A DNA stretch of 22,969 nt from a virus (lineage: Duplodnaviria; Heunggongvirae; Uroviricota; Caudoviricetes): the IMG/VR virus record IMGVR_UViG_2548876695_000005, positions 1 to 22,969 of that record; one strand, given 5' to 3'. The translations under genes and the position numbers were made by a program. The stretch's first letter is position 1. Each line of letters opens with the position of its first letter. Shown here one piece after another: positions 15,584 through 15,964 of the stretch. Under the pieces are notes generated by a model. That model saw only the letters and a program-made list of their open reading frames with translations. It had not been told where the DNA came from and made no database searches.

Positions 15584-15625
15584 TCCGTGGGGAGCTGAAC
15601 CAGCAACATGTAACCAGGTGAATCA

Positions 15626-15783
15626 TTTGATACCGACAAGGCTTTTAGTGAAAGGAGGTGAAATCACCTGTAAGATGCTGAAATAAAACAGGTGATGTAT
15701 AGTTCGGACGGAAAACTCTTTTTGATACCGACTGCTCAACAAATAGTCAAAAGATCAAAAAACGGCGACACATTTGATACTGC
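15626..15783 (+). repeat. three direct repeats TTTGATAC(C/T)G, candidate transposase-binding end sites analogous to Mu attL L1-L3
   Basis: TTTGATACCGAC at 15626-15637 and 15721-15732, TTTGATACTGC at 15773-15783. Spacings of 95 and 52 bp resemble Mu L1-L2-L3 spacing. Located between the last P2-like gene and the 3' end of the repressor gene. Confidence 0.45.
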
Positions 15784-15964
15784 TAATTTACCCTTAAAAT
15801 CTTCTTCAAAACATCTTCAAACTGCCAAAATGCTCACATAATCGATCTAACTATAATCAGTATGATAATCATCATGAATTACTATTCAATAGCGTGATTA
15901 TCTTGGGATGAGTCATATGATCTCTATATGTATTTACAGCACCACCTCATGATAGCGATGGCGC

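Follow-up and report, generated by a model that had tools for sequence, protein, structure and literature searches.

The stretch of DNA analysed here (hereafter the window, i.e., the 22,969 nucleotides at positions 1 to 22,969 of IMG/VR virus record IMGVR_UViG_2548876695_000005) carries the left part of a P2-like prophage, followed without interval by the left end of a Mu-like transposable prophage of the Sp18 type. The window corresponds to the entire draft contig AGTK01000096.1 of assembly GCA_000234295.2, with an identical gene order, and the series AGTK01000001-433 represents the fragmented draft assembly of Escherichia coli O45:H2 strain 03-EN-705 (PMC4393859). Gene identities were taken from Pfam. 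Two loci served for comparison, i.e., that of an uninterrupted P2-like prophage adjoining yegQ in strain 2011C-4251 (L001) and that of a Mu-like prophage of 39,480 bp in rihA of strain 61_150228 (L003). The features on either side of the transition are the following:

72-15608, + strand: left part of a P2-like prophage (Peduoviridae, Irrigatiovirus/SI7-like), comprising its early genes, the cargo of the hotspot and the head module as far as codon 10 of a gpS-like gene
8349-8675, - strand: Ogr/Delta-type zinc-finger late activator (Pfam Ogr_Delta, E 3.5e-16)
8672-9733, - strand: portal, Q-like (Pfam Phage_portal)
9730-11541, - strand: large terminase, P-like (Pfam Terminase_6N/6C, Terminase_5)
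11718-12779, + strand: scaffold, O-like (Pfam Phage_GPO)
12808-13830, + strand: capsid, N-like, P2 family (Pfam Phage_cap_P2, E 1.3e-86)
13833-14534, + strand: small terminase, M-like (Pfam Phage_term_smal)
14577-15110, + strand: head completion, L-like (Pfam Phage_GPL)
15107-15583, + strand: intact gpR-like tail completion/terminator (Pfam P2_Phage_GpR, E 8.5e-19; tail terminator in the SI7 annotation)
15580-15621, + strand: decapitated gpS-like (Phage_tail_S) gene, read from the sequence as a stub of 13 amino acids (MIRGELNQQHVTR*)
15605-15608, + strand: left copy of the 4-bp target-site duplication AACA (from the empty site and both junctions)
15609-22898, + strand: left 7.29 kb of the Sp18-like Mu-like transposable prophage (terminus TGTAACC...)
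15626-15636, 15721-15731 and 15773-15783, + strand: three transposase-binding-type repeats (core TTTGATACCGA), arranged like Mu L1/L2/L3
15965-16663, - strand: Mu-like repressor (Pfam HTH_3, E 3.7e-12)
16696-16741, no strand: 18-nt inverted repeat (complementarity 94%, spacer 10 nt) where repressor and ner diverge
16758-17024, + strand: Ner-like regulator (Pfam HTH_35, E 1.7e-20)
17035-19125, + strand: A-like DDE transposase, full-length open reading frame (ORF) (Pfam Mu-transpos_C PF09299, E 1.5e-17; weak HTH_Tnp_Mu_1)
19197-20129, + strand: MuB-like AAA+ ATPase, full-length ORF (Pfam Phage-MuB_C PF09077, E 2.5e-25)
21482-22012, + strand: Gam-like host-nuclease inhibitor (Pfam Phage_Mu_Gam PF07352, E 1.5e-41)

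On the P2-like side, Q-P are divergent from O-N-M-L, the capsid belongs to the P2 family, gpA and Ogr/Delta are encoded and a classified close relative exists, which together place this element among the P2-like phages. On the Mu-like side, a Mu-transpos_C transposase, its MuB partner and the order repressor, ner, A, B, gam place the element in the Sp18-like lineage. The original prediction, made from the sequence alone, had named the head genes Q, P, O, N, M, L and an R-like gene ending at 15583, with a Mu-type left end (repeats, repressor, ner, A, B, gam) within ~30 bp; Pfam bore out all of these head genes, and the Mu-like end was indeed found, beginning at 15609, together with each of the components listed for it.

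The left junction and the interrupted gpS-like gene

When window positions 13800-17100 were compared by megablast with 5,426 complete E. coli genomes and the GenBank phages, the break between both elements was located exactly at 15608/15609: query positions 1-1809 drew P2-like matches, positions 1810-3301 drew Mu-like matches, and no record spanned both. Pairwise BLAST agreed on this position, across which the GC content changes from ~0.60 to ~0.40. To its left, window 1-15608 aligned with 2202-17809 of the 2011C-4251 locus at 99.987% identity (2 mismatches and 0 gaps by pairwise BLAST), and to its right, window 15609-22900 aligned with 708-7999 of the rihA locus at 99.66% identity, likewise without gaps. 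The left junction reads ...ACCAGCAACA/TGTAACC... (or, in short, CAGCAACA/TGTAACC; slashes mark junctions throughout), and the empty site in strain 2011C-4251 reads ...ACCAGCAACAGCTAAAGCAG... (in short, ...CAGCAACAGCTAAAG...).

The gene that is broken off at this point is gpS-like. Its first 29 nt (15580-15608) are original, after which the frame enters the Mu-like end, so that the 25 nt from the gpR stop codon to the Mu-like terminus are gpS-like codons. The insertion, which the original prediction had placed within ~30 bp of the end of the head genes, is thus not intergenic. The start of gpS was assigned to the GTG at 15580, which overlaps the gpR stop codon, because the annotation of SI7 and ESSI2_ev129, the Pfam profile and the conservation of the N-terminus all point to it. 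Indeed, both in SI7 and in the more distant ESSI2_ev129 (RefSeq), the next gene starts 4 nt before the upstream stop codon. Moreover, residue 8 of the long gpS form pairs with position 3 of the Pfam Phage_tail_S profile (score of 29.7 bits, exceeding the cut-off), and the N-terminus MIRGELNQQQLKQM has a conserved counterpart (MIAGGELNKKQLAEL) in the ESSI2_ev129 orthologue, which is 61% identical. With this start, the insertion lies two bases into codon 10 of the gpS-like gene.

With regard to the annotation of this gene elsewhere, the NCBI Prokaryotic Genome Annotation Pipeline (PGAP) starts it at an internal ATG (218 amino acids), whereas the evidence favours the GTG start (231 amino acids; L001 17781-18476). 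The methionine chosen by PGAP is a leucine in the ESSI2_ev129 orthologue, and the gpS-like start is thus mis-annotated in many RefSeq E. coli genomes.

Right junction, contig edges and alternative explanations

In the uninterrupted prophage of strain 2011C-4251, the gpR-like gene is followed by gpS-like, DUF2586 sheath, tube, holin, M15 endolysin, tail chaperone, tape measure, baseplate J and fibre genes. An exact-protein look-up of gpR-like revealed the full tail module behind it in all 10 distinct contig contexts, and the intact R-S site was present in 18 complete E. coli genomes at an identity of at least 99%. Across these 18 genomes and the 10 contexts, the uninterrupted prophage is 99.99-100% identical. 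The window itself holds neither tail nor lysis genes, as the original prediction had observed; however, the lack of lysis genes after L is normal for this type of phage, which has none between L and R, and does not result from the split.

A search pattern composed of the Mu right-end repeat, 10-30 nt and the P2 sequence downstream of the empty site yielded one match in IMG/VR, i.e., contig UViG_2548876695_000022 (dealt with here as two contiguous pieces, L014 and L128). Its right junction reads ...AATCGGTATCAAAAAAATCGCCGCGCTATA/AACA/GCTAAAGCAGATGCGGG... (short form GCGCTATA/AACAGCTAAAG; L014 5093-5104), and comparison of the left junction, the right junction and the empty site shows that AACA was duplicated by the insertion. 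Beyond this junction, L014 5101-6650 equals L001 17806-19355 and L128 1-13597 equals L001 19356-32952, both at 100%, so that P2-like sequence resumes for 15,147 bp in total and comprises all tail and lysis genes up to the prophage end. The original prediction had regarded the P2-like prophage as split by a nested Mu-like phage, and had pointed to a Mu-like right end with a target duplication and to P2 tail genes resuming beyond it as the way to check this; UViG_2548876695_000022 provides all of these.

None of the 5,426 complete E. coli genomes contained either junction. Pattern scans for the left and the right junction had no match in species-representative genomes or metagenome contigs, and an exact-pattern scan of viral contigs did not retrieve the left junction. 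A stable junction shared among relatives, which the original prediction had named as the observation that would speak against nesting, was thus absent from the complete genomes.

The two junctions and the empty site were directly observed, and each of the two elements was identified; the locus almost certainly arose when an Sp18-like Mu-like phage inserted in the gpS-like gene of the P2-like prophage and thereby split the latter in two. The contig as such consists of two separate prophages and two ends of an insertion sequence (IS), with no chimeric phage. The window and UViG_2548876695_000022 would stem from the same event, given that the insertion point is identical for an element that inserts near-randomly.

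Because tail and lysis genes are missing from the window, its P2-like element could also be taken for a satellite or remnant that has a capsid but no tail and whose natural end lies after gpR, with the Mu-like phage merely adjoining it. However, the 29 nt from 15580 onwards are a conserved gpS start, gpR is followed by the full tail module in every one of its 10 contexts, and in UViG_2548876695_000022 the tail module follows the Mu right end, which makes such a satellite very improbable.

A natural hybrid phage, i.e., one packaging unit with a P2-type head and a Mu-type early/transposition module, was the alternative put forward in the original prediction, and the adjacency of both modules within the window is the sole observation in its favour. 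The switch between them nevertheless coincides to the base with the terminus of a transposable phage that is complete elsewhere, and the P2-like genome resumes past the Mu right end with a target duplication. Moreover, none of the complete E. coli genomes carries either junction, while 18 have the empty site intact, and the Mu-like relatives own full head and tail gene sets. With an unshared junction and a composite of more than 70 kb (vs. 30 kb for SI7 and ~39 kb for the Mu-like phage), the hybrid was rejected as extraordinarily improbable.

Both edges of the contig lie in copies of the same IS element, and the Mu-like early region is affected by the right-hand copy:

1-71, + strand: right end of a 1310-bp IS3-family element (...GGGGCGGTTCA), aligning from L001 2202
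22656-22901, + strand: Mu-like early gene cut to 81 amino acids by the IS, its stop codon TGA being the first three IS bases
22899-22969, + strand: left end of the IS (TGAACCGCCCCGGG...), at 100% identity to L001 963-1033

Both IS ends and the 1310-bp length can be seen in the 2011C-4251 locus, where the element spans 963-2272 and its annotation names an IS3 family transposase with programmed frameshift. Its presence in the P2-like early region is thus common to the window prophage and the uninterrupted 2011C-4251 relative. We provisionally take this element to be IS629-type on the basis of its inverted ends (TGAACCGCCCCGG-type) and its length. The early gene that it truncates has an intact homologue of 177 amino acids in the rihA prophage (L003 7755-8288). 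The exact 81-amino-acid product was found in just 6 contigs, each ending at the IS, and four other assemblies or read sets share the truncation. The draft contig thus ends at 22969 because of an IS629-type insertion in the Mu-like early gene, and the assembler broke it at both ends because of the repeated IS copies there.

Such a fragmented draft assembly (AGTK01000001-433), with a contig ending in IS copies, might raise the suspicion that the assembler misjoined P2-like and Mu-like contigs. No repeat is common to both sides at the junction, however, and the join falls exactly at the Mu terminus. In addition, the reciprocal junction shows the 4-bp duplication of this phage family, as at seven other sites (see below), and two complementary chimeras are very unlikely, so that we attribute only a very slight probability to a misjoin.

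In terms of mechanism, the Sp18-like phage (~39 kb) was integrated by DDE transposition into the P2-like prophage resident in E. coli O45:H2 03-EN-705, and its staggered target cut of 4 bp duplicated AACA at 25 nt past the gpR stop codon. The early genes, the hotspot cargo and the Q-P/O-N-M-L-R head module thus lie to the left of the insert, and the rest of gpS with the sheath, tube, lysis, tape-measure, baseplate and fibre genes to its right. The Mu-like copy later gained the IS629-type insertion in a small early gene. Its repressor, ner, A, B and gam ORFs are all of full length, and its alignment with the relative in rihA is free of gaps.

The P2-like prophage is most likely defective and would no longer form infectious particles, first of all because its gpS is left without a start. 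Furthermore, there is no intergenic gap of more than 30 bp between gpS and the following sheath, tube, holin and endolysin genes, so the tail and lysis genes are probably left without a promoter. No strict P2-type late-promoter motif (TGT-N12-ACA) was present in the intergenic gaps, and this polarity is therefore argued solely from the gap-free gene spacing. Finally, the two halves of the prophage lie ~39 kb plus a 1.3-kb IS apart, and the composite measures more than twice the 30 kb of SI7.

A number of points weigh against these conclusions. The left and right junctions sit on different contigs, the origin of UViG_2548876695_000022 and the window in one assembly is presumed, and a pattern combining the IS end with downstream Mu sequence was unmatched. 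Scans with three Mu-like proteins did not return UViG_2548876695_000022, so this contig holds at most ~17.7 kb of the right part of the Mu-like phage, and for the window strain the analysis covered 7.3 kb at the left end of the Mu-like copy (window) and 5.1 kb at its right end (L014). As for the P2-like prophage, its loss of function is deduced from the sequence. A shortened gpS could be made from the internal ATG (Met14), and a shortened product may also arise by way of an ORF that crosses over from the Mu right end in the same frame as the rest of gpS.

Insertion of a Mu-like phage into a prophage of Shiga toxin-producing E. coli (STEC) is a real, ordinary and already documented kind of event. 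Sp18 of O157 Sakai was described as Mu-like and apparently intact (PMC2669165), and Sp18-related prophages reside at strain-specific sites (PMC7430833). In closed STEC genomes of clonal complex 119, 6 of 10 Sp18-like Mu phages lie inside mobile elements, and several Shiga toxin phages carry such insertions (PMC10132054). GenBank records LC727881 and LC727895 likewise annotate a 'region of the inserted Bacteriophage Mu-like phage'. The value of the present case therefore lies mainly in annotation, and in providing a further example of Mu-like phages and IS629 degrading resident STEC prophages; the 4-bp duplication and the hotspot protein family (present in several Enterobacterales genera) described below may outweigh the nested insertion in worth.

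Target duplication, ends and relatives of the Sp18-like phage

The insertion in the window was compared with seven others (loci L003, L016, L017, L018, L137, L138 and L139, besides the window and L014). A target duplication of 5 bp, as anticipated in the original prediction, was contradicted by this comparison: all eight independent insertions (window, rihA, bglJ, glrR, siiEA, cho, betT and melA) displayed a perfect 4-bp duplication (AACA, AAAG, GTAC, CGTA, CACC, AGAG, CAAC and CGTT). The termini of all eight are TGTAACC...GCGCTATA, and the nucleotide five positions before the left end was never A, which excludes a 5-bp duplication overlapping the terminal A.

These insertions thus depart from those of Mu sensu stricto, with its 5-bp duplication and 5'-TG...CA-3' termini, in that the Sp18-like duplication is 4 bp long and the Sp18-like right terminus is ...TA. 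In addition, the Sp18-like transposase is distant from MuA. Its rve-type core is weakly similar to that of IS481 and IS3 transposases and of retroviral integrases, and in a phmmer search against solved structures it matched no MuA chain but retroviral integrase cores alone (E ~1e-4). Duplications of 5 bp in Mu and 6 bp in B3 have been described, as have TA termini in Leptospira transposable prophages (PMC8705779). No literature report of a 4-bp duplication for the Mu-like/Sp18 lineage was encountered, although our coverage was incomplete and the feature may already be known. The 4-bp duplication, together with ...TA in place of the near-universal CA, tentatively hints that Sp18-like phages might use a strand-transfer geometry different from that of Mu, a proposal that we hold with some reserve. 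If true and undescribed, this would constitute a distinct transposition variant among the Mu-like phages, and the boundaries of Sp18-like prophages would be called differently.

Near the left end, the repeat TTTGATACCGAC has two exact copies (15626 and 15721) and a third, degenerate one (15773), located at 18-28, 113-123 and 165-175 nt from the terminus. The right end (L014) carries the repeat in inverted orientation at 18-28, 40-50 and 75-85 nt from the terminus, so that the terminal repeat is equidistant (18-28) from both inferred termini. These repeats are putative transposase-binding sites, and as in bacteriophage Mu there are three on each side, with L1 apart from L2/L3 and with R1-R3 packed. 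Further likeness to Mu lies in the order c-ner-A-B...gam, the Mu C-terminal domain, the MuB-like ATPase and near-random insertion with a short duplication. The inverted repeat at 16696-16741 is probably an operator, judging from its position alone. As for the repressor, its RefSeq relatives start at the ATG at 16606 (213 amino acids).

Relatives of the Mu-like left end were present in about 230 E. coli genomes at many loci, and the unrelated insertion sites include rihA, bglJ, glrR, siiEA, cho, betT and melA. Several relatives sit inside genes of other prophages (i.e., those for small terminase, head completion, portal and HK97-gp10). A complete genome of ~37-40 kb with the full gene set occurs in the near-identical relatives L003, L017, L018, L138 and L139, the size of the relatives being 38.8-39.5 kb, and the prophage in rihA carries its own mor, lysis, head, tail, invertible-segment, com and mom genes. 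Like Sp18 of O157:H7 Sakai in phage type, host group, the repressor/ner/A/B/gam set, variable insertion sites and the ~39 kb of its relatives, the window copy differs from it by lying in a P2-like prophage gene and by carrying an IS629-type insertion. This link to Sp18 was made via copies that are 94-100% identical in O157 and other STEC genomes, rather than by direct alignment.

Some of the relatives attracted attention for other reasons. A DUF6645/sialate O-acetylesterase-like gene near the Mu-like right end is variable (L014 890-2947; L003 35899-37938), with ~88% DNA identity between phages that are otherwise 97-99% identical and with ~60% protein identity to most catalogued homologues; among catalogued proteins, the one closest to the product of UViG_2548876695_000022 is P0001, with 4 residue differences. 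Outside the window, RefSeq gives an 80-nt 'tRNA-OTHER' antisense to the head genes in the Sp18-like prophages of L015, L017, L018, L138 and L139 (e.g., L018 18071-18150). Two Mu-like prophages are internally deleted, to 19.4 kb in L016 (strain DLI.5a) and 10.0 kb in L137 (strain HCP4S3_I4), one of them with an IS1. Both keep their termini and the 4-bp duplication, i.e., they have decayed in place.

Remaining P2-like genes and the hotspot protein

Left of the head genes, the P2-like prophage encodes a Fil-like protein and the following:

1430-2320, + strand: Dam-type N6-adenine DNA methyltransferase in the early region (Pfam MethyltransfD12, E 1.9e-57; orphan methyltransferase in PADLOC)
2317-4929, + strand: gpA-type rolling-circle replication endonuclease (Pfam Phage_GPA, E 3.2e-107)
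5294-8086, + strand: orphan protein of 930 amino acids with N-terminal hydrophobic helices (GC ~31%) in the variable gpA-gpQ hotspot

The closest isolated phages are the Salmonella phages SI7, SW3 and SW5 (Peduoviridae, Irrigatiovirus), with a 30-kb genome. SI7 shares 96.5% nucleotide identity with the window prophage across capsid, small terminase, L, R and the start of S, and the gene order L-R-S-sheath is common to both. In contrast to the intact and isolated SI7, the window prophage is broken by an IS629-type element in its early region and by the Mu-like phage in gpS. With bacteriophage P2 itself, the window prophage has in common the divergence of Q/P from O-N-M-L, gpA, an Ogr-type activator and a variable A-Q cargo slot (cf. 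PMC9122126). It differs from P2 in that phages of its type carry their holin and endolysin after sheath and tube, with no lysis gene from L to R, and in having a DUF2586 sheath and a differing tail module.

The slot between gpA and gpQ is an anti-phage hotspot in P2-like phages (PMC9122126), and among the prophage relatives it was found to hold HicAB, GmrSD with HEPN, a KAP NTPase and a methylase as other cargo. The 930-amino-acid protein that occupies it in the window, encoded by a gene unrelated to the P2/Mu junction, had no match in Pfam, NCBIfam, PADLOC or PDB sequences. Its homologues form 53 clusters, which are annotated from Enterobacterales only and none of which has a Pfam domain. Homologues in Serratia and Klebsiella (31-36% identity) reside in the equivalent gpA-to-portal slot of P2-like prophages. 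The AlphaFold2 model of the protein (predicted local distance difference test, pLDDT, 85; predicted template modelling score, pTM, 0.66) falls into four parts, i.e., an N-terminal helical region (14-211), a small alpha/beta domain, a long helical repeat and a beta-rich C-terminal domain. From their hydrophobic segments, residues 14-211 look like a transmembrane bundle or membrane anchor; an invariant motif (H80-G81-T82...M91) falls in this putative transmembrane region. Structure searches with this model returned generic helical-repeat matches only. We consider the protein to be a candidate uncharacterised anti-phage defence gene product.

A further homologue, in Citrobacter (L132, GCA_048082645.1, 6001-8772), adjoins a Peptidase_U32 (YegQ-type) gene and has no prophage genes within the 6 kb shown on either side. 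It looks as if this cargo gene is the sole survivor of a decayed P2-like prophage at that attachment site.

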